NCBI GenBank assembly: GCA_048881705.1
Contig: JBHLSH010000013.1
Span: forward strand, 1 to 58,303
Origin: Candidatus Heimdallarchaeota archaeon
Lineage (GTDB): Archaea; Asgardarchaeota; Heimdallarchaeia; Hodarchaeales; Hodarchaeaceae
Reading direction: 5' to 3'
DNA length: 58,303 nt
Below, piece after piece: positions 3,092 through 55,696 of this stretch. The notes under the pieces are model-generated. The model had not been told where the DNA came from. It saw nothing but the letters and a program-made list of their open reading frames with translations, and did not search any database. Every line of letters starts with the position of its first letter. The first letter of the stretch is position 1. Made by a program: the position numbers and the translations under genes.

Positions 3092-3268
3092 ATTATAACA
3101 ACAAATGTCGATTGAATATGCAGTATAATTGGGGGAGTGGTATCGATTTTTGCATTTTGCTTACCTCTTCAGGAGTTCTTAAAAACTTCAGTATGTAAGA
3201 TATTGTGTCCCCAGCTAGGATCATCGTTCTCTATTCTAATAGCTAAAAACAAGAATGAGCGGTCAGAA

Positions 3269-4363
3269 GTGATCCAAGAAGTACCACAGTACCAATTAAT
3301 GGACTTTTGGCCCTATTTTAAAAGACATAGGATTATGAACGTACTAGCCCAAAATTTGGTGTGGTCTAAAGTGAGTGGATTTGTAAATAGTTTGACAAAT
3401 CCAGAGGTTGTAATGTTTCTATGTCAGCAGGGGCCTTGTTTTTTAACAGGAAATAGCAAAGCTGAAGAGTTAAAAGAGTTTTTAGTGAAAATTCCGGAAA
3501 AAACATATATTTACGTACCCTCGCAGGAATGGGAATCAAGTTTTAGAGCTCAATGGACCTACTTTGGATATATTCCACGTACTGAACTTTCTGCTAAGAG
3601 TTTATCCCTACAGATTATTCGCAGGATATTCAGTCCATTACCTAAGGAATTTCAGTTGAAGAAGGTTGATATAGAAGCAGTAAGACAAATTCCAAATCAA
3701 AATTTTTCAAATTATTTAGTAGAAATGAAAAATTATTTTGGAAGTCCCGAGAAATTTATCGAAGAAGGAGTGGGGTTCTGTATTCAGAAAAATGAAGCAA
3801 TTTTGTGCGTGGTGATTGGTTTTTTGGCATCTGTCCCAATTACTCAAAGTCTTGAACTCTATATTGCAACTCATCCAGATTACCGTGGAAGAGGTTTTGC
3901 AACATTAGTAGGTGCCAAGATGATTGAATATTGTTTAACAAAAGGAATTGAACCCCATTGGGATGCAGCAAATCCATTATCTGTGAAGCTAGCGCAAAAA
4001 TTAGGATATACCCATCCTGAACCGTATAAATGCTATTACTGGCGAAAAAATCCATGGTCTATTTCGGAACTAAAAGAAGTTTTTCATCCTCAATTTGAAA
4101 AAGGATTAAGAAATATGCAATTGATCAAATCAGAGATAGCTTCAGTGATGGTAAAACAACAGAATAAAAACACTAGACTTACCCTCTTATCACGATTAAT
4201 TAAGGCTCAGTGGAATTTTAAAGAAATTCTTTTAAATATCAATCGGTTTCTCGAAACTAAGATTGTAAAAGAGTCAGATGTTCCGCAATTCAAAGAATAT
4301 GGGGAAAAACTTATGCAGGAACTTGCGACTTTGGAACATCTCAAGAATAGACTAAATTGGTAG
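3269..4363 (+). CDS. GNAT-family N-acetyltransferase (PF12746-like) with helical C-terminal extension
   Basis: GFCI...ELYIATHPDYRGRGFATLVG...YCLTKGIEPHWDAANPLSVKLAQKLGY. GTG start at 3269 (MIQEV) chosen because it aligns with the N-terminus of the paralog at 47196. Confidence 0.85.
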   Translation: MIQEVPQYQLMDFWPYFKRHRIMNVLAQNLVWSKVSGFVNSLTNPEVVMFLCQQGPCFLTGNSKAEELKEFLVKIPEKTYIYVPSQEWESSFRAQWTYFGYIPRTELSAKSLSLQIIRRIFSPLPKEFQLKKVDIEAVRQIPNQNFSNYLVEMKNYFGSPEKFIEEGVGFCIQKNEAILCVVIGFLASVPITQSLELYIATHPDYRGRGFATLVGAKMIEYCLTKGIEPHWDAANPLSVKLAQKLGYTHPEPYKCYYWRKNPWSISELKEVFHPQFEKGLRNMQLIKSEIASVMVKQQNKNTRLTLLSRLIKAQWNFKEILLNINRFLETKIVKESDVPQFKEYGEKLMQELATLEHLKNRLNW

Positions 4364-4567
4364 AGAATTTTTTTCTCTTTGAAGGGAGGAGAAGAAGCTG
4401 TAACATCTATCAAAATTTCTTCGTTCAGGAGATTTAGATCAGCAGAAACTATTTATAGTTGAATTTTAAACTTTTAATACTTTGACCTTATGTATAGAGG
4501 AATTGGATATATATGATACAAATATGCGGCAAAGGATAGCGGATATCTTGGCTGAGGGGAAAATATA

Positions 4568-5626
4568 GTGGCACACTTAATATCTACAAAACATTATATC
4601 CACCAACTAACGTTGACAGGAGTATTAAAAACATGGAAAAAATCGGATTACGAGTTAATAAACCAAGCAAGGGTTTACGAAGACAAAACGAAAAGCTATT
4701 GGGCACGACTCAATTACAGGATTTTTCCATTCAATGAATTTCTATATATCTGGGGATTGAATTCCATAACGATTTGGAACGCCAACAAATTACGATTCGA
4801 AGAAAATTTGGATTTTCCTGGGATTTTGGATGATTACGTAAAGCAAAACCGATTTAGGATCCGAAGTTTGATTGTTGATAACGAAAGTGTCTATGCATTT
4901 TCTCAGGGTGGGAAGCTCATTATTTTAGACCGTAGGTTAAATAGAAATGTCTTTTCCTCGCTAGGATCTGATTTTCCAGTGAAAGTGAAAATGCACAAAA
5001 ATGATAATCCCTCGAACTACAGCGTATCTGGTGTTTATGATTATAAAAACGTAATTTTCGTCAGCGGAGGATTTGACGATTTTCCGCCTGGGGGAGCCGA
5101 GAAAGATTGGATAGCCTTTTTGAGCATTTTTGATAAAAACCAGAGAAAAATCATCTTCACGAAAGAAACAAGGCATGCTCGAATTAAAGGGTTAGTAGCC
5201 GATGATCAATATTTATATCTGCTAAAATTTTACGAATATGGCCCCGGTGCCTATTTTGGCTTTTTAAACTTGAAATGTCTCGAATTTGTCCCTACCTGGC
5301 ATTCCTTTTTTGATGTTTTCTTCTTCCATATCAGAATTCATGAGAATAAGGTGTACTTGGCTTCAAAAAAGAAGATTTACATTATTAAAACCCAAACTTT
5401 GCTCAGATTATGTAAAGAAGAGCGAAGAACGGATAATGGTTTGAATCGACCTATCTCAGAAAAAAAATTGACATGTATATTCGAATTAGCTATTAACGAT
5501 CAATCTAAAGATCCCACGATCTCAGATTTGGTGGTCGATGATCAACATATACTCATAGAGTCAGATAGGGAGCAAGTTTGGGTGTTAGATCCCGAAAGCC
5601 ATCAGGTAGTCTGTAAGCTGGAATGA
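4568..5626 (+). CDS. Hypothetical protein, beta-rich (possible propeller)
   Basis: 352-aa ORF with recurring short beta-strand patterns (SLIVDNESVYAF, GLVADDQYLYLL, DLVVDDQHILI). No family recognised. Confidence 0.6.
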   Translation: MAHLISTKHYIHQLTLTGVLKTWKKSDYELINQARVYEDKTKSYWARLNYRIFPFNEFLYIWGLNSITIWNANKLRFEENLDFPGILDDYVKQNRFRIRSLIVDNESVYAFSQGGKLIILDRRLNRNVFSSLGSDFPVKVKMHKNDNPSNYSVSGVYDYKNVIFVSGGFDDFPPGGAEKDWIAFLSIFDKNQRKIIFTKETRHARIKGLVADDQYLYLLKFYEYGPGAYFGFLNLKCLEFVPTWHSFFDVFFFHIRIHENKVYLASKKKIYIIKTQTLLRLCKEERRTDNGLNRPISEKKLTCIFELAINDQSKDPTISDLVVDDQHILIESDREQVWVLDPESHQVVCKLE

Positions 5627-5768
5627 AAACCGCTTACATCCGTAATTTACTTGCTCCCCTACCACGTTGAGGCGCACTATATCTTATCTCAATCGGAAGC
5701 TACAGCTTGACACGAAGTAAGGCCCAGATCCCATCCTTCTTTGGGGGGGAGGGAGTCTTTCTCCTTTT

Positions 5769-6845
5769 TCACCATCTATATCTTTTTAGATATAAAATCC
5801 CACCAATCAAAAGCACGATCACAACTTCGAATCCGTTTACTGGTTCAGATGTACTAGCGCTAGTGCTCTGTCTAGTAACTCCGACCCACCCAATTCGGTG
5901 TGCAGAATAAAACCTGGTTTCATACTGATTATTCGAGACTGTAGTGTACTGAAACGTAATGACATAGAAACTTCTGGTTAAATTGCTTATTTGGCCACTC
6001 ACACGATAAGCACGCAGGTAATCACTTTCGTAAGTGGTAGAATAGTCTTCCCAAATATATAGGGTTCGCCAGTATAGGTTAAGTTTAATGGTTAGCTGGG
6101 TAAGATCAAAATAAACCCAGCTTATGAGGATTTGATCAAAAAAGATGGAGTCGTTTTCCACAGTAACATTTACTTCGCCATCCTTCCAGTCATAGGGCCC
6201 GCCAACACACTCAGAAATAGTATATGTAAGTTGAGCTGAGGTTGAATCTTGAAGTTGAGGACGAGAATAAGGAAAGGGGTCATATTGAAGGTCATAGCCA
6301 GTACTTGTAACAGTCAAATTTGCCCCATACGTGTCTACGGCAACAAATCCAGTAGGAAATGCTTCTTCAAGAGAAAAATCCAAACGATAAAAACCGTTTG
6401 GTAAACGAAACAGTATATGATTTTCGATAGCAAATTGAAATGTGGTTGGCGTGGTTGAAATTCCTACTGGATATAAATCGGGTGTAATAACAGTGGCGGC
6501 TCCCGAACTCCGGGACAAGTTCATGCTTGAATTCTCCCAATCCGCTTCAATTGATATATAGATTCCACGAGAATCCGCGTACGAGGTTTTCAGCTCCACT
6601 TCTCCGGTATTCCAGATTTCATATACTATATCAAAGTTGAAGTAGGTGCAATTATAGAGATGAAGAAGATTCCAAGTAACTGAACGCAAACGCAAATGTA
6701 TATCTGGTTTTTCATCGAGTTCGCTAGCCTGCGCTTCTACAGGGTCGGTTTTCGAGCTTTTGACAATCACAGAAGGTATGAAAAACGATATCAAGACGAT
6801 AAGGCTCAGGATTTTAATAGATTTGATCCCTTTGTCTAAATCCAT
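5769..6845 (-). CDS. Secreted surface protein with C-terminal sorting or anchor signal
   Basis: N-terminal hydrophobic signal, many N-x-S/T sequons, ends TSASTSEPVNGFEVVIVLLIGGILYLKRYRW. Confidence 0.75.
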   Translation of the reverse strand: MDLDKGIKSIKILSLIVLISFFIPSVIVKSSKTDPVEAQASELDEKPDIHLRLRSVTWNLLHLYNCTYFNFDIVYEIWNTGEVELKTSYADSRGIYISIEADWENSSMNLSRSSGAATVITPDLYPVGISTTPTTFQFAIENHILFRLPNGFYRLDFSLEEAFPTGFVAVDTYGANLTVTSTGYDLQYDPFPYSRPQLQDSTSAQLTYTISECVGGPYDWKDGEVNVTVENDSIFFDQILISWVYFDLTQLTIKLNLYWRTLYIWEDYSTTYESDYLRAYRVSGQISNLTRSFYVITFQYTTVSNNQYETRFYSAHRIGWVGVTRQSTSASTSEPVNGFEVVIVLLIGGILYLKRYRW

Positions 6846-7125
6846 TCTCTCCAGCTTCGATCGTCCATTTTACGGTATTCAAATATTTATAAAACTATGC
6901 TCTGGAATTATAGACAAAGAACCCAGGTTTTCTTTTCTTCCCTCTTAATCTTGAGCCTTTTTTTATCATTACAGCTGCAGGGCAACTAGCTTTAGAGACC
7001 TGGCCTAGGAGGCCAAATTTTCTTACCGCAAATGCAATTGTCCGAACAGGGCAGTTTGGAGACTCCTTTGAATGCCCTTTTCTATATTTTTTTATAGTAG
7101 AGAGTCTGATTTTGTTCGATTTCAA

Positions 7126-8247
7126 ATGAGATTCAATTCGATGTTAAGTACATTGAGTATCGTTATTCTGCTTATTGTAATTCCTAATTCAATTTATTTT
7201 ACATCAGCTAGGCCTGCTGATCCAGTTATGTATGGGAATTCTGTTACTCCTAGCAAATATAACGTTAATATGACAATAGTGGATGAATTAAATGAAGGAG
7301 GGGGTGCTAAAGATATAGAAATTGTTGAGGGTATTGCTTATGTGTTATCAGATTCAGGGTTGAATGTCTACAATGTTGCTGACCCAAGTAATGTCTACGA
7401 ATTAGGTCATTATTATACAGATGGTTATCTCGGGCATTCAATAGCGGTATACAAGGATTATGTGTTTGCGGCAGCAGATGATAAAGGATTGAAAATCATC
7501 AATGTCACTGAACCTGCAAATCCAAGATTGGCGACCACCTATACAAATACTCGACCCGCAGGCATCTTTATTCAAAATGAATTATTATTTCTAGCCAATT
7601 GGATAAATGATTTTGAAATCTACGATATAACTAACGTTCCTTTGATAAGTGAAGTGATAAGATTCAAGGGTAACGGATTTAATCGTGCATTCGCATCTGA
7701 TGATTTATCCATCGGGTTTGCCAACAATGGAAGTTTACTGATATTAGATATCAATAATCCGGAAAATATTAAAGAAGCTAGACAGATAAATGACGAGGAG
7801 ATTTCCTGTGTAGCAATTTATCGCGACTGTTGGTATACGGGAGGGTCAAATGGAATTAAGGTGTTTAATTCAACACAACTATCAAATCCTGTATTGGTGA
7901 AGCATTTTACGGAGACAGAATCGTCATTTATTACTAATTTGGCAGTCCTAAATGGATTCTTATATGCTTCAGATTTTGAATTAGGGTTTAGAATATTTGA
8001 AATTTCGGAATCGTATAATTTGTCAGAAATTGGCCGCCATGAAGTAGGGGGTGTCCCCTTAGGATTTCAAGTTGAGGGGGAAATTGCATATGTTGCCAGT
8101 CAAAGAAGGGGCATAGAAATAGTGAAAATCCAGATTACGGAGACAAGGGCGACGTACTATGGATCAGAGGTTATTCTTCTGAGTATGTTTATTCTGGGTC
8201 TCTTTGCAGGAAGAAGGATGGCTCGAAAAGAACATTACCCTAGATGA
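7126..8247 (+). CDS. LVIVD-repeat beta-propeller surface protein
   Basis: Repeats such as IAVYKDYVFAAADDKGLKIINVTEPANP and LAVLNGFLYASDFELGFRIFEIS. Signal peptide and C-terminal TM plus basic tail. ATG at 7126 preferred. Confidence 0.85.
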   Translation: MRFNSMLSTLSIVILLIVIPNSIYFTSARPADPVMYGNSVTPSKYNVNMTIVDELNEGGGAKDIEIVEGIAYVLSDSGLNVYNVADPSNVYELGHYYTDGYLGHSIAVYKDYVFAAADDKGLKIINVTEPANPRLATTYTNTRPAGIFIQNELLFLANWINDFEIYDITNVPLISEVIRFKGNGFNRAFASDDLSIGFANNGSLLILDINNPENIKEARQINDEEISCVAIYRDCWYTGGSNGIKVFNSTQLSNPVLVKHFTETESSFITNLAVLNGFLYASDFELGFRIFEISESYNLSEIGRHEVGGVPLGFQVEGEIAYVASQRRGIEIVKIQITETRATYYGSEVILLSMFILGLFAGRRMARKEHYPR

Positions 8248-50440: not shown

Positions 50441-51433
50441 TTATGGATTGGCATTCAGAACTAGTCTTTTGATGGTTCGAGTAATCACCATACTGATCCA
50501 TTGGTGGGCAATGGTTCCTTTGATTTTCAACAGTTTTAACGACGTCCAGAGTCCTGAATCACTCTGAGTTGTTATGAAATATTGTACAGCTTCATTTATC
50601 TTCTCTTTTTCAAGTGTATGATTTAATGAAGCCAGGGAATCGAGTGCAGAAAGCAAATCAGTAAACCAGAAAGGAAATGCGAATTTACACCAAAAGTCTG
50701 GGGATTTCCTATCTGAATATGTATCAGCTTTAAAAAACCGATCTATTAACAGTTCTCCCGCTTTCAACGTTTCTTCGATCTTCGAATATTTCGGATGAAC
50801 GGCCAACGCTCTTAAAACGACACCAGTCACCAAATGAGAAAAAGGTTTTTTCCTATCAGGGAGGACGGCTTCCATTTTATATTGTGGAGTAATGCTATCC
50901 AATTTCAAGCGTCGGGTGCGAATTGGAATTGCCCATCCTCCATCATTTTGACGGATACTCAGTAACCATTCTAAACCTTTCAGAACCCGCGGATCATTAG
51001 TATACCCAGCCTTGATTAAGAGTTCAAGTATCCCTGCGGTATAGTTGGGAGTGTATTGATTTCCATAGATGCCCCTTATATCCCCCTCAGTGGTTTGAAA
51101 GGATAACAGGAAGTCACAAGCCTTCTGAATGGAAGTGTGCTTTTTATTCAACATGTATTTTTCAACTAAGAACCCCAACTGACGATAAGTTTCAAGCTGG
51201 TTGTAATTCTCTTGTGTTCTGACAACCAAGTTGCCAGCTGGATATTTCCAAAAGCCGCTTTCGTGCTGTCTCCGAAAAATCCTCTCTACTTCTTTTGATG
51301 TCCAAAGGTCACCTGAAGGATCCGTCTCTTCATCAAGTAGAAACTTCCGTGTGTTTAGACGGACGGCTAAATTCGACACCCTTTCTAGTGGGGACAAAGG
51401 ATCAAATTTGAAGATCTCAGTCCATTCGGCCAC
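50441..51433 (-). CDS. Prenyltransferase/squalene-cyclase (QW) repeat protein
   Basis: RQHESGFW, FQTTEGD, IRQNDGGW and TQSDSGLW QW-type repeats. Confidence 0.8.
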   Translation of the reverse strand: MAEWTEIFKFDPLSPLERVSNLAVRLNTRKFLLDEETDPSGDLWTSKEVERIFRRQHESGFWKYPAGNLVVRTQENYNQLETYRQLGFLVEKYMLNKKHTSIQKACDFLLSFQTTEGDIRGIYGNQYTPNYTAGILELLIKAGYTNDPRVLKGLEWLLSIRQNDGGWAIPIRTRRLKLDSITPQYKMEAVLPDRKKPFSHLVTGVVLRALAVHPKYSKIEETLKAGELLIDRFFKADTYSDRKSPDFWCKFAFPFWFTDLLSALDSLASLNHTLEKEKINEAVQYFITTQSDSGLWTSLKLLKIKGTIAHQWISMVITRTIKRLVLNANP

Positions 51434-51667: not shown

Positions 51668-51862
51668 ATGAATTCAAATGAAATAAACTACAATAAATTT
51701 TGGGGTATCTTCTTTTTTGTACTGCTGGGAACTATGGCTTTCATCTTTTTTGGGCCACCGATTAATCTCGTCTTAATCTTCATCATCACTTTAGAGGGAT
51801 TTCTTATATTGAAAAGAGGTGACTCAAATAGGAAAAAGGGCGAGAAGTTCACACTAAGGTAA
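51668..51862 (+). CDS. Small two-TM membrane protein
   Basis: 64 aa, two hydrophobic helices around GPP, basic tail. Confidence 0.5.
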   Translation: MNSNEINYNKFWGIFFFVLLGTMAFIFFGPPINLVLIFIITLEGFLILKRGDSNRKKGEKFTLR

Positions 51863-52628
51863 TAATTCGTCCAGCCCAGCTTAAGGTTAGCTGTTTAATC
51901 CCCTTATATGTATTTACTGCACCGAACTCGATACGTACCCTATCCTCGACTCCCACCCGAGATATTTGTTCGTTCCACAGTACCAGAACAACTTTGCCCG
52001 TGTTATCCCGAAGTTCCGCGTCAGCAACGGCCAGTGATTTTCCAGTGGATCTGGATTTTACCCTTCTAGATGCCGATACCGCATGGATGACCCCTTCGAC
52101 GGTGACATCCTTCATTCCCTTTTTTAAATCCGCAATTTTTGTAATCCCATAAGGCATAGACGAATCCATCACTTTTTGGTACCATATACCGCGCCAGCCA
52201 GGGTATTCATCATCCCATCCTATTTGAATGAACCCCAGCTTTTGGTAAAAGTGATTCGTCCTCACGTTCCACTCAGGGGTTCCTAATGTCCATAACTGGA
52301 CACTGGGATATTGTTCCCAAAGTAATTCCATCGCCCTGGCAGCAATGCCCTTGTTATGATGAGCAGGATCAACAAAAATTCTTTCTAAAACACGATGATG
52401 TTTAACTCCTCGAGAAAAAATCCCGCCAACGATTTTTTCCTCAAAGAGTATCTTATAGTAATCCATGAACTTCATAAATCGAAGTTGGGCAGCAGAAGTG
52501 TCATATCCAGGGGGGCCCCCAGGGCCAGGAGCCCCTACTTCGGAATCACTGTCAAACGCCTTTTTAGAAATTAAAGCAAGTTTATGAGCGTCCTCTTGCT
52601 TTGCTTTCTCAATATTAACCGTAGGCAT
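51849..52628 (-). CDS. GNAT acetyltransferase fused to a C-terminal SSB/RPA-type OB fold
   Basis: N-terminal: LERIFVDPAHHNKGIAARAM...RTNHFYQKLGF. C-terminal: ITKIADLKKGMKDVTVEG...ADAELRDNTGKVVLVLWNEQ...RVRIE...NTYKGIKQL. Confidence 0.88.
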   Translation of the reverse strand: MPTVNIEKAKQEDAHKLALISKKAFDSDSEVGAPGPGGPPGYDTSAAQLRFMKFMDYYKILFEEKIVGGIFSRGVKHHRVLERIFVDPAHHNKGIAARAMELLWEQYPSVQLWTLGTPEWNVRTNHFYQKLGFIQIGWDDEYPGWRGIWYQKVMDSSMPYGITKIADLKKGMKDVTVEGVIHAVSASRRVKSRSTGKSLAVADAELRDNTGKVVLVLWNEQISRVGVEDRVRIEFGAVNTYKGIKQLTLSWAGRIITLV

Positions 52629-52643
52629 GGCTCTAACATGCTT

Positions 52644-53240
52644 TCATTCTCGAACTTTTTTTGATGGTGGATTGGCACGAACAATCGAAGCTGCTTTTTC
52701 AGCTACACGAATCAGCTCTTTGAGTATCTCCTCAGAGACAAATGGTGGTTTAAACTCGAGAGTATCCTTGTATTGCTCGAGGTATCTCTCTTTTGTTAGG
52801 TTTTGGTCTTTTAGCTTGCCCAACAGCCGATAACTTCGCATTGGCCTCTCGATCCATCGCATAATCTCATCTCCATCTTCATCCGCGAAAACAATTACTG
52901 GAATTTTCTTTCTTCCTGCAGTTGAATAGAACGATTCGATTTCGTCAGGATAACTATCACGAGAACTGATACGAAATGTCCAGTTAGGAAGGATGTCTGC
53001 AAGTACAGCTATGATAGGAACTCCATTGGCACAATCACCACACCAACTTTCCGCGATGCAAAGTACACGCAGTTTCTCATTCAAAAGTGAGACTTTATCC
53101 TGGGGAAGCCTGTTAACTGCCATTTGACCAGCATTAAAACTGTCGTTCATCCTTTCTTTGTGTTTATCACTTTTTTTAGTGTATTCTTTGTAAGAGATGC
53201 CATTCTCGAATAGTTTATTGAATGAATCATGTTTATTCAT
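52644..53240 (-). CDS. Thioredoxin-family protein (Thioredoxin_9-like)
   Basis: LCIAESWCGDC, KIPVIVF, WIERP. Confidence 0.9.
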   Translation of the reverse strand: MNKHDSFNKLFENGISYKEYTKKSDKHKERMNDSFNAGQMAVNRLPQDKVSLLNEKLRVLCIAESWCGDCANGVPIIAVLADILPNWTFRISSRDSYPDEIESFYSTAGRKKIPVIVFADEDGDEIMRWIERPMRSYRLLGKLKDQNLTKERYLEQYKDTLEFKPPFVSEEILKELIRVAEKAASIVRANPPSKKVRE

Positions 53241-53289: not shown

Positions 53290-54876
53290 TTAGGAACATA
53301 TGTCTCCTTTTTCAAGTTCGGAATCATAGAACGAGTCCCAATACCTCTTCTGTTTGATCTTCCCTTTTCGCAGTACTTCTTCCGTCATATTCTCGCTAAA
53401 TGGATTTTGGAGTTTTTCCTGGATCAAAAATTGGGCTTCCGTCTTCAGATTCCATAATGTCTGGAGTTTAACGGAATTTAAGTGGTAATAACGTATTTCG
53501 GAGAGATTTTGGTCTTCATCGAGTCTTAATTCAAAGGGTCTCCGTGTAATGAAGTAATATAGACAACCGAAGACCGCTACGCTATAGACCAATCTATAAA
53601 CAAGCATCGCAATCGCATAGCTAAATCTATCAAGCCCAACTGGGTCTAAACCAAAGAAGTTCGGAATCAGCGGTCTGATCCTACTTTGTATCAGAGAAAA
53701 GATATCTATATCAAGAACTGTCAGGAATACAAACATAAACACCAGTATCAGAAGTAAAACAAACGAAAAAATCATTTTAAGATAATAAAGCCTGATTTGA
53801 TATCCCCGTATGGGTTCTACAGAATGATGGAGTCCTCTCATTATGAAAGTCGGCCTTCCCTTCCGCTCGTATTTTCGGGCAGATTTTCCCTTTTTCTCTG
53901 TAATACAGTAATGGAGGTTGTCAGATCGGATCATAGATACTTGCCATTTATTTTTGGTGGTTTTCTCCAAGTAAACGAATATAGGAGCGTAGTCCATATC
54001 ATGACTGAGTTTTCGGATTATAAAGTTCCAAATGCCAGTCAATTTGTTTTTAAGGATAGTATCCTGATATAGGATAAGAATGACGGACGCAATGATCAAG
54101 ATTAACAGAATTATTGGAACTAAACCTATCTGGATAATCCATTGGTCAATTTCGGTTGATTCAAGATTAATAGCATACGCAAGAATAATCGTCCAAAATG
54201 GATTGAAGAAGAAGAAGAATTCTATGATTAGAAGGATCCCAAAGATGACCATGAGAATGACTAATAACAGCGACCTTACTGAAACTACTTTTTTCCTATA
54301 ATAGGTATAGCTAAGGTCAGCCATTCCTGCAATAAAGATTAATGAACCAAGGATAACTGCGAAACCGTAGTAATATTGCGATACTATTAGAAATTGATCA
54401 GGATCAACCCCCCCCGTGGAGGTTTCGACATAAGTGATGGTATCGAATTTAAAGTAAATTGAGATGAAGAAAAGAAAGAGTAACGGCAAAACGAGGTTGT
54501 ACATTGTGATTGGTAGTTTTTGACGGACATAGGTATAAATATATTGAATACAAAGCTTCGATGAGTCTTCAACTGTACTTTCATCCCCAAGAACCCGATA
54601 TAACATACCCCCCCACGAATTACTTTCTTTTTCTGAGTGGAGACTTTGACCGAGCAGCTTGATTTTCGGTTCATGTTCCTTAGCATGACCCACAGCTTGG
54701 GAGCTTTCAGTGAGATCGTAGGCATTGACTAATGGCAGATACTTATCGGGTGTCGACTTGATATGTTTAATTTGCTCTAGGATTGCATTCCGAGAAAAAT
54801 GATTAGGCCATTCGCTATCTTTGGCGTCCTGTTTTAAGTTTTCAATAGATGGTGCAATAGAATCGCAATATTTCAT
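53290..54876 (-). CDS. Polytopic membrane protein with soluble domains, unknown function
   Basis: 528-aa ORF; GGAG RBS; about 4 + 2 TM segments interleaved with soluble regions. Confidence 0.75.
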   Translation of the reverse strand: MKYCDSIAPSIENLKQDAKDSEWPNHFSRNAILEQIKHIKSTPDKYLPLVNAYDLTESSQAVGHAKEHEPKIKLLGQSLHSEKESNSWGGMLYRVLGDESTVEDSSKLCIQYIYTYVRQKLPITMYNLVLPLLFLFFISIYFKFDTITYVETSTGGVDPDQFLIVSQYYYGFAVILGSLIFIAGMADLSYTYYRKKVVSVRSLLLVILMVIFGILLIIEFFFFFNPFWTIILAYAINLESTEIDQWIIQIGLVPIILLILIIASVILILYQDTILKNKLTGIWNFIIRKLSHDMDYAPIFVYLEKTTKNKWQVSMIRSDNLHYCITEKKGKSARKYERKGRPTFIMRGLHHSVEPIRGYQIRLYYLKMIFSFVLLLILVFMFVFLTVLDIDIFSLIQSRIRPLIPNFFGLDPVGLDRFSYAIAMLVYRLVYSVAVFGCLYYFITRRPFELRLDEDQNLSEIRYYHLNSVKLQTLWNLKTEAQFLIQEKLQNPFSENMTEEVLRKGKIKQKRYWDSFYDSELEKGDICS

Positions 54877-55105: not shown

Positions 55106-55696
55106 GTGGACGAGGAATCCGTGTTTAGGTTACTCTTTGTCTCCGTTTATGCCGTCTTTGCTGGTGTGAGGATTTTTTACAGAAGTCAAACTCTCGGAAG
55201 AGAGAGTGAAAAAGTATATAGTTTGTTTAACAAAGCTACGATAGCACTCATGATCGCAATTCTGGGATATTTTCTATCTCTGGGTTTATGGTTTTTCATT
55301 CCCCAGATCATTATTCAATTTTATGTTCCTTTGCCATCATTGGTGCGATGGCTTGGAGGGGGTTTAGCTACAGTGGGTATTGCGCTTACTGTATGGATTC
55401 ATCACACCTTGGGTAAGCAATATGCTGCCAGGTGGGAAATCCAAAAAGATCACCAGTTGATCACCGCTGGCCCTTATAGTAGAGTTCGTCATCCTATGTA
55501 TACAACCTTCAACATATTCGGTATCTCGGTTGCATTAATAACCGCGAATTTATTGGCTATCTTCTTTGCTATTGCTATTGCAATCCCTTTCTTTTGGATA
55601 GCAAGGAATGAAGAGGAGATTCTATTGGAACAGTTTGGAGATGAATATTCAGAGTATATGAAAAGAACTGGACGATTTCTACCCCGTTTTGGTTAA
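55106..55696 (+). CDS. ICMT/Ste14-family methyltransferase
   Basis: HQLITAGPYSRVRHPMYT...NEEEILLEQFGDEYSEYMKRTGRFLP. Confidence 0.9.
   Translation: MDEESVFRLLFVSVYAVFAGVRIFYRSQTLGRESEKVYSLFNKATIALMIAILGYFLSLGLWFFIPQIIIQFYVPLPSLVRWLGGGLATVGIALTVWIHHTLGKQYAARWEIQKDHQLITAGPYSRVRHPMYTTFNIFGISVALITANLLAIFFAIAIAIPFFWIARNEEEILLEQFGDEYSEYMKRTGRFLPRFG

Follow-up and report, generated by a model that had tools for sequence, protein, structure and literature searches.

A conserved archaeal family of GNAT acetyltransferases fused to an SSB-type OB fold

In the single-stranded-DNA-binding protein (SSB) SsoSSB, residues W56, W75 and F79 of a single OB fold stack on three bases, and RNA too is bound by this face with high affinity (PMC5346138); a Saccharolobus SSB has likewise been reported as a non-essential RNA chaperone (PMC10684826). 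Among the acetyltransferases of the GNAT family, enzymes such as PaiA, SSAT and SpeG modify polyamines, and RimI and archaeal Ard1 (Naa10) modify protein N-termini. To our knowledge, no acetyltransferase is aimed at its target by an SSB-type OB fold. Here we analyse a stretch of 58,303 nucleotides (nt), referred to below as the window, from Candidatus Heimdallarchaeota archaeon (assembly GCA_048881705.1, contig JBHLSH010000013.1, positions 1 to 58,303), and we describe in it a gene, GNAT-OB, that encodes a GNAT domain joined to an OB fold. The original prediction, made from the letters alone, had read this gene as an acetyltransferase targeted by an OB fold to single-stranded nucleic acid, and as part of a redox/DNA-damage operon.

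GNAT-OB belongs to a conserved archaeal family whose presence is optional, and it encodes a predicted enzyme of two domains, with a GNAT half that is predicted to be catalytically competent. The frame is open for just 5 further codons 5' of the ATG, a small opposite-strand open reading frame (ORF) overlaps the 3' end of the gene, and another assembly from this species (G102/L029) has a protein that is 100% identical. Its features, in window coordinates, are as follows.

51849..52628 (-): coding sequence of the GNAT-OB fusion (P0001), complete from ATG start to TGA stop, 259 aa; from the ORF list and its translation
52161..52628 (-): GNAT domain, residues 1-156; Pfam Acetyltransf_1/_7/_10, VIA-align, and Foldseek to PaiA, 8osp and 3fnc
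52500..52520 (-): GGPPGYD loop that separates helices 1 and 2, residues 37-43; marks the GNAT subfamily
52341..52358 (-): acetyl-CoA motif A HNKGIA, residues 91-96; from conservation over 118 members
52245..52247 (-): Tyr128, candidate general acid; aligns with PaiA Tyr142
52179..52217 (-): extended beta6-beta7 hairpin WDDEYPGWRGIWY, residues 138-150; its Trp, Arg and Tyr residues are specific to OB-fused forms
51852..52139 (-): SSB/RPA-type OB fold, residues 164-259, without a C-terminal tail; from profiles and the OB model
51975..51977 (-): Trp218, equivalent to base-stacking W56 of SsoSSB; by alignment, Trp in 118/118 members
51918..51920 (-): Ala237, at the position of SsoSSB W75; by alignment, Tyr in 98/118 members
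51906..51908 (-): Tyr241, equivalent to base-stacking F79 of SsoSSB; Tyr in 90/118 and Phe in 28/118 members

The strings on which the original prediction was built (KIADLKKGMKDVTVEG, DNTGKVVLVLW, VRIEF and YKGIKQL) are all present in the translation, and the domain boundaries that it proposed (GNAT at about 52170-52628, OB at about 51849-52150) agree with the 52161-52628 and 51852-52139 given here. Its claim of a complete GNAT domain is borne out by Pfam, by the fold match, and by motif A, N121 and Tyr128. Pfam GNAT models fall on residues 60-145 (Acetyltransf_1, PF00583, E 1.6e-10 over residues 60-133), the full-length model aligns in VIA-align with about 50 GNAT structures (Z 19.5-15.5, covering residues 1-158), and the AlphaFold2 (AF2) model of this half has its strands and helices in the order expected for the GNAT alpha/beta fold. 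Residue conservation was counted over 118 full-length GNAT-OB members, down to about 41% identity to the query. G94 and N121, the motif B Asn, are kept in 118/118; the motif A pattern Q/R-x-x-G-x-G/A is matched by HNKGIA with His instead of Gln/Arg at the first position, and position 96 is Gly or Ala in every member. Y128, which pairs with PaiA Y142 in the profile-to-PDB alignment, is found in 117/118 and is invariant in alignment A2.

In the GGPPGYD loop G38, P39 and Y42 are kept in all 118 members and D43 in 117; the loop is common to stand-alone and otherwise-fused GNAT relatives (alignment A2). On this signature the GNAT half is assigned to a distinct "GGPPGYD" subfamily, which is also marked by the block W-T-L-x-T-P-x-W-N-x-R-T / FYEKLGF and whose consensus reads AF..D...G..GGPPGY(D/S)S and W.L.TP.WN.R..HFYEK.G. 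A search of 1.84 billion representatives with the GNAT half returned 255 clusters at E <1e-10, and most relatives in the subfamily stand alone, at a length of about 150-165 aa, and occur mainly in Bacillota. In other members the fusion partner consists of pentapeptide repeats, a SWIM zinc finger, a transglutaminase-like domain, an AAA_18 kinase-like domain, DUF3795 or a second GNAT. The pentapeptide fusions (P0148, P0186, P0231 and P0261, the last being Fictibacillus norfolkensis WP_191753328.1; also an ESM Atlas cluster of 134 Bacillota members) have pentapeptide domains that are acidic, with a net charge of -6 to -10; the solved pentapeptide-repeat proteins Qnr and MfpA are DNA mimics. The SWIM fusion is represented by one metagenomic protein (P0134). 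Both of these architectures appear to be unstudied as well.

The proposed kinship of the second half with the OB folds of SSB and hSSB1 held up in profile and structural comparisons alike. A profile of 30 family OB domains retrieves SsoSSB (2e-14), P. abyssi RPA (4e-10) and hSSB1 (2e-6) from the PDB. The OB domain modelled alone by AF2, at a predicted local distance difference test score (pLDDT) of 93.3, matches SsoSSB in Foldseek (1o7i, query-normalized template-modelling score (TMq) 0.86, root-mean-square deviation (rmsd) 1.6 A) and hSSB1 bound to single-stranded DNA (ssDNA; 5d8f, TM 0.82). As expected for the SSB/RPA subtype, the model is a five-stranded barrel with a helix inserted between strands 3 and 4. 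Of its 50 best listed structural matches, all but a few uncharacterised OB domains and one HIN domain bound to double-stranded DNA are OB folds that bind ssDNA (SSB, RPA, POT1, Teb1 and TEBP). In Pfam the same half matches PF01336 tRNA_anti-codon (2.2e-6, 28.0 bits vs a cut-off of 27) and PF21473 Ssb-like_OB (1.6e-5, 25.4 bits, barely above the cut-off of 24). The NCBIfam model of short archaeal SSBs, NF005049, aligns with residues 155-259 at E 2e-13 and gives 47-51 bits, far under its curated cut-off of 188.

W218 and V190, the latter equivalent to SsoSSB I30, are found in 118/118 members, position 241 is aromatic in all of them (Tyr 90, Phe 28), and position 188 is Arg or Lys in 116. All three stacking positions are aromatic in 98/118 members, with Tyr at position 237 in 83% of the family; the window copy has two of the three, W218 and Y241 at the W56 and F79 positions, with Ala237 at that of W75, which corrects the original prediction. 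No flexible charged C-terminal tail was found, the chain stopping with the final OB strand at residue 259. As the characterised relatives of this domain bind RNA as well as ssDNA (PMC5346138, PMC10684826), its likely ligand is best described as single-stranded nucleic acid. The proposed targeting to single strands is a reasonable supposition, with OB contact positions under purifying selection, for which the term ssDNA was too narrow. The joint conservation of G94, N121 and Y128 and of the OB contact residues indicates that both halves are selected for function.

Besides GNAT-OB, the genome has three short SSBs that stand alone, 168-181 aa long (NF005049 at E 1e-26 to 2e-32; G000 contigs C71:118-375, C7:61172-61432 and C50:19856-20116, or L002, L003 and L004). 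These are paralogous, with very similar N-termini (…HDVKI…PLEK…NVVF…) and sequence that continues beyond the OB fold, and their presence argues against the fused OB being the general SSB of the cell. A word-dependent search, which would miss distant SSBs, returned just three stand-alone matches close to the fused domain, all on contigs of <1 kb and probably fragments of fusions.

The full-length AF2 model has a pLDDT of 92.6 and a predicted TM score (pTM) of 0.87, and the ESM Atlas model of a Thorarchaeota member, predicted independently, matches it along 257 superposed residues (TM 0.96, rmsd 1.2 A). Given this agreement between the two models, the halves appear to adopt a single fixed packing throughout the family. 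Neither Foldseek nor VIA-align, run on the full model, found a solved chain covering both halves, and matches were limited to residues 1-158. A two-copy complex prediction from alignment A1 scored 0.00 vs a mark of 0.42, a value that says nothing for or against a dimer. The two halves differ in charge, the family means being -7.0 +/- 5.3 for the GNAT half and +3.4 +/- 2.1 for the OB half. The extended beta6-beta7 hairpin carries W138 in 116/118 members and W149 in 113/118, and R146, G147 and Y150 are also conserved, while stand-alone GNAT relatives have a shorter hairpin without equivalents of these five residues. In the OB-fused forms the hairpin would be either a docking surface for the OB or else an extension of the binding path.

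In the profile search of the PDB the solved GNATs that score best act on polyamines (PaiA 2e-12, SSAT2 1.5e-9 and DpA 1e-8), and by fold the closest are protein N-terminal acetyltransferases (RimI-like, Z 19.5; Ard1, Z 19.2). Both groups act on cationic amines. We favour, with somewhat less than even confidence, a reading in which the OB tethers the enzyme to single-stranded nucleic acid and the GNAT acetylates a cationic protein or polyamine there. We infer the following course of events. The basic OB would bind a short stretch of ssDNA or RNA through its SsoSSB/hSSB1-type face, and this binding would bring the acidic active site of the GNAT beside the strand. The GNAT would there N-acetylate a cationic amine, either the Lys side chain or N-terminus of a basic nucleic-acid-binding protein or a polyamine, and acetylation, by stripping positive charge, would loosen the target from the nucleic acid. 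The acidic pentapeptide and SWIM fusions of the same GNAT subfamily are suggestive of a nucleic-acid or polyanion theme.

Several observations weigh against a tethered enzyme with a cationic acceptor. The GNAT half is only 18-20% identical to the PaiA/SSAT/SpeG-type enzymes, with 18-20 bits on the PaiA model NF053587 and 15 bits on NF011709 vs cut-offs of 250 and 218, and it is 15-18% identical to the RimI/Ard1-type enzymes, with 22.6-23.8 bits on the rimI model TIGR01575 vs a cut-off of 86.4. Scores so far below the equivalog cut-offs place it outside those families and make the acceptor class a guess. In the window protein the net charge of the GNAT half is 0, not the negative mean of the family, alongside an OB half of +7, and Ala237 at the W75-equivalent position may weaken strand binding. 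When all flanking ORFs at 72 GNAT-OB loci were clustered, with flanks of up to 6 kb, no neighbour family recurred in more than 9 of the 72, so that no conserved partner gene indicates a target. Full-text literature searches found no paper on the GNAT-OB architecture or on any member, and, as originally stated, no characterised protein with this architecture was found in the literature or among solved structures.

The hairpin and the OB profile also bear on a second explanation, in which the acetyl group goes to the nucleic acid or to an amine that it carries. The acceptor would then be an exocyclic amine of a base (ac4C-like), an aminoacyl-tRNA or an aminoacyl-nucleotide, with the OB holding the strand or the tRNA 3' end. 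The match to tRNA_anti-codon (PF01336) would fit such a role, as would W138, R146, W149 and Y150, typical binders of bases and phosphates, in a hairpin that in GNATs generally borders the acceptor site. GNATs that act on RNA or aminoacyl-tRNA are known (TmcA/NAT10 and TacT/AtaT/KacT), and KacT appears weakly, at 1.9e-5, in the profile search. We nonetheless regard this explanation as unlikely. The GNAT half is acidic on average, at a net -7, and the tRNA-binding GNAT toxins differ from it in this respect; no conserved antitoxin-like small neighbour gene was found across the 72 loci, and the gene is mostly monocistronic; neither PF13718 nor a helicase is among the Pfam matches. Finally, stand-alone members of the subfamily are common in Bacillota, which argues that the core enzyme needs no nucleic-acid handle.

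The fusion is not peculiar to the assembly in which it was noticed, since an architecture census finds hundreds of homologues of about 260 aa across archaeal lineages. A word-seeded search returned 343 proteins, of which the best 120 are nearly all two-domain and nearly all about 260 aa long, and are annotated merely as 'GNAT family N-acetyltransferase'; their sources are Heimdall/Hodarchaeota, Promethearchaeota, Theionarchaea, Methanofastidiosia and Bathyarchaeota. When one genome per species was scanned, 94 relatives were found. A full-length copy is present in about 61 of 301 sampled Asgard genomes and in 44 of the 251 Bathyarchaeia genomes that were sampled; in the ESM Atlas three clusters have this architecture (104, 56 and 56 members), all archaeal. 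Divergent members, with GNAT halves only 33-36% identical, still carry the OB. The tree has two well-supported halves with Bathyarchaeia on both, Theionarchaea nest next to Bathyarchaeia, and Thorarchaeota have two paralogous lineages, with two copies in several genomes. On this sequence record GNAT-OB is best described as an optional gene, duplicated and exchanged among co-habiting sediment archaea, and not as core replication machinery.

Two members binned as Patescibacteria and Krumholzibacteriaceae (L041, DATLAV010000029.1, and L053, DATKWN010000031.1) lie inside Bathyarchaeia clades on very short branches, from which they are probably mis-binned archaeal contigs; we accordingly rejected both as bacterial members. 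One record, JBHLRO010000003.1, was deposited as 'Candidatus Thorarchaeota', a label that looks inconsistent: its genus-level kin include closed genomes that carry a Heimdallarchaeota or Hodarchaeota label, and its GNAT-OB groups with theirs. The GNAT-OB protein matches none of the PADLOC defence models, tblastn against 50,697 phage records gave no GNAT-OB match, and plasmid matches were confined to stand-alone GNATs on Bacillus-type megaplasmids at 30-34% identity; an origin in defence or mobile elements was rejected on these grounds.

Accessory genes for detoxification are typically optional and patchy in this way, have paralogues and mix across phyla in their trees, and a third explanation holds that GNAT-OB acetylates a small molecule (a xenobiotic, antibiotic or metabolite), the OB being a structural, regulatory or ligand module for which nucleic-acid binding is irrelevant or just regulatory. 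Its neighbourhoods are variable and often contain genes of a detoxification type (glyoxalase, DinB_2, nitroreductase, MFS, aldo-keto reductase, DrrA-like ABC ATPase, and HxlR, HTH_20 and FilR1 regulators), and its structural neighbours include the resistance GNATs BAR, tabtoxin resistance protein and the streptothricin acetyltransferases. An unused OB face, however, is hard to reconcile with SSB contact positions that are kept down to about 41% identity; members only about 35% identical in the GNAT half retain the OB domain, and the top 50 listed structural matches of that domain are mainly ssDNA-binding OB folds. We therefore consider a small-molecule enzyme fairly doubtful, and an ordinary detoxifying GNAT with a borrowed OB would be of modest interest.

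In the window, GNAT-OB is preceded by two co-oriented genes, a membrane protein gene and a thioredoxin gene, with gaps of 49 and 15 nt.

52644..53240 (-): Thioredoxin_9 gene with a WCGDC motif, 15-nt gap upstream of GNAT-OB; Pfam PF14595, 1.8e-27; context, not a conserved partner
53290..54876 (-): gene for a 528-aa multi-pass membrane protein; no family match; context

The co-orientation of the three genes, their short gaps and the WCGDC motif of the thioredoxin-like protein speak for the redox/DNA-damage operon that had been proposed. This part of the original prediction did not survive comparison: the thioredoxin and the membrane protein adjoin GNAT-OB at 1 of the 72 loci, that of the same species (L029/G102), where they are 100% identical, and neither occurs at any of the remaining 71, among them relatives of 66-70% identity, or at 17 other loci of the genome scan with 1.5-kb flanks. 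The thioredoxin-GNAT-OB order is thus confined to one species, an operon function is highly improbable, and the thioredoxin link was rejected at the level of the family, given 71/72 loci without a thioredoxin neighbour.

Elsewhere the commonest neighbour family is a generic ABC ATPase, and the other families (reductive-dehalogenase-like, FilR1-type regulator, AFOR, SDR and PEMT/ICMT) each occur only within related genomes. A same-strand neighbour within 50 nt is found at 9/68 loci upstream and 6/66 downstream, and these neighbours are heterogeneous. Repair genes adjoin GNAT-OB at three Thorarchaeota loci. At L098 a UvrA-like gene (3097-5982, +) lies 3 nt upstream, with further UvrA-like ORFs downstream; at L094 a remnant of a UvrA C-terminus (5786-5977) lies upstream; and at L069 a UvrA-like gene (6-2720) lies 3.3 kb upstream and an AlkZ-like DNA glycosylase gene (6813-8039, +) 38 nt downstream. 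This adjacency gives weak, lineage-restricted support for a DNA-damage link, and a fourth explanation can be framed around it, with the OB as a sensor of the ssDNA that lesions or stalled forks expose and the GNAT as the enzyme that marks proteins of repair or chromatin there; in general outline this is the original prediction less its thioredoxin part. Yet the three loci represent at most two independent events in a single lineage, the other 69 have no replication or repair neighbours, and SSB-type OB folds also bind RNA and can be RNA chaperones (PMC5346138, PMC10684826); we judge a dedicated damage role to be quite improbable.

Other genes near GNAT-OB deserve brief mention. A 330-aa protein encoded at window positions 50441-51433 (-) has as its sole match a partial squalene-hopene-cyclase C-terminal one (PF13243, 1.7e-8), a terpenoid cyclase / prenyltransferase alpha-alpha toroid, and is 94% identical in the sister assembly vs 100% for GNAT-OB, the thioredoxin and the membrane protein. 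The 528-aa membrane protein (53290-54876) matches no Pfam, NCBIfam or PADLOC model. A PEMT/ICMT-type membrane methyltransferase lies within a few kb of GNAT-OB at about 5 loci (window 55106-55696, +; L084:3576-4118; L075 at about 5061-5465; L023; L021), a recurrence that probably reflects local synteny or chance.

Returning to the tethered acetyltransferase that we favour, its broader significance would lie in acetylation directed by single-stranded nucleic acid. The enzyme could be a strand-gated writer acting on chromatin, SSB or RNA-binding proteins, or it could acetylate the strand itself without a TmcA/NAT10-type helicase, a prospect that we put forward as rather speculative. If true, strand-directed acetylation would be a new mode of regulation or modification in archaea, including the Asgard lineage closest to eukaryotes, in a domain of life where protein and polyamine acetylation are poorly mapped. 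Possible roles would include the release of basic proteins or polyamines that are bound to nucleic acid, or the marking of strands that lie exposed. Copies are present in about one fifth of the Asgard and Bathyarchaeia genomes sampled, and Theionarchaea (not counted) have the gene too; the conserved, apparently rigid GNAT-OB offers a simple testable case of acetylation coupled to ssDNA or RNA. That this subfamily has in parallel been joined to DNA-like pentapeptide repeats in Bacillota suggests a broader and unstudied connection with polyanions. New in this analysis are the definition of the GNAT subfamily with its other fusion partners, the contrast in charge between the halves, the fusion-specific hairpin and the support for a defined inter-domain geometry, together with Ala237 in the window copy, the rejection of the thioredoxin link and the sporadic adjacency to UvrA and AlkZ genes.

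Among known systems, those that act on RNA or aminoacyl-tRNA (TmcA/NAT10 and the toxins TacT, AtaT and KacT) offer a functional analogy. Unlike TmcA/NAT10, with its helicase, PF13718-type GNAT and tRNA-binding tail, GNAT-OB has by Pfam neither a helicase nor a PF13718 GNAT, in a total of 259 aa, and unlike TacAT, AtaRT and KacAT it has no conserved antitoxin partner and has an acidic GNAT half. The Asgard histone acetyltransferase described in a 2026 preprint is a different GNAT, with a GKGLMS motif, Glu95 and Asn138. The Bacillota GNAT-pentapeptide fusions (WP_191753328.1) are of the same subfamily, at 28-41% identity (32-44% by the whole-library search), and also carry their extra domain C-terminally; they differ in being bacterial and in that the appended acidic beta-helix resembles DNA and is not a basic DNA-binding domain, and they too are uncharacterised.

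The OB half resembles SsoSSB (1o7i, 2mna, 7wcg) and hSSB1/SOSS-B1 (5d8f, 4owx) in being a single, basic OB of the same subtype, and it retains the equivalents of SsoSSB I30, W56 and F79 across the family, with Tyr at the W75 position in 83% of members; unlike these proteins it is fused to an enzyme, lacks a partner-recruiting tail and, in the window copy, has Ala at the W75 position. The GNAT half resembles the polyamine acetyltransferases PaiA, SSAT and SpeG (1tiq, 2bei, 8a9o) as a short single-domain GNAT, acidic on average, with the PaiA match at 2e-12 extending over nearly the whole domain and Tyr128 in the place of PaiA Tyr142. Its GGPPGYD loop and WTLGTPEWN block are subfamily-specific, and those enzymes have no nucleic-acid-binding domain. 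In fold its top neighbours are RimI and archaeal Ard1 (Naa10) (9mto, 4pv6, 5isv, 4r3k; Z 19.5-17.1, rmsd 1.6-2.4 A over about 140 residues), but whereas RimI and Ard1 reach their targets via the ribosome or partner subunits, GNAT-OB has an OB fold instead.

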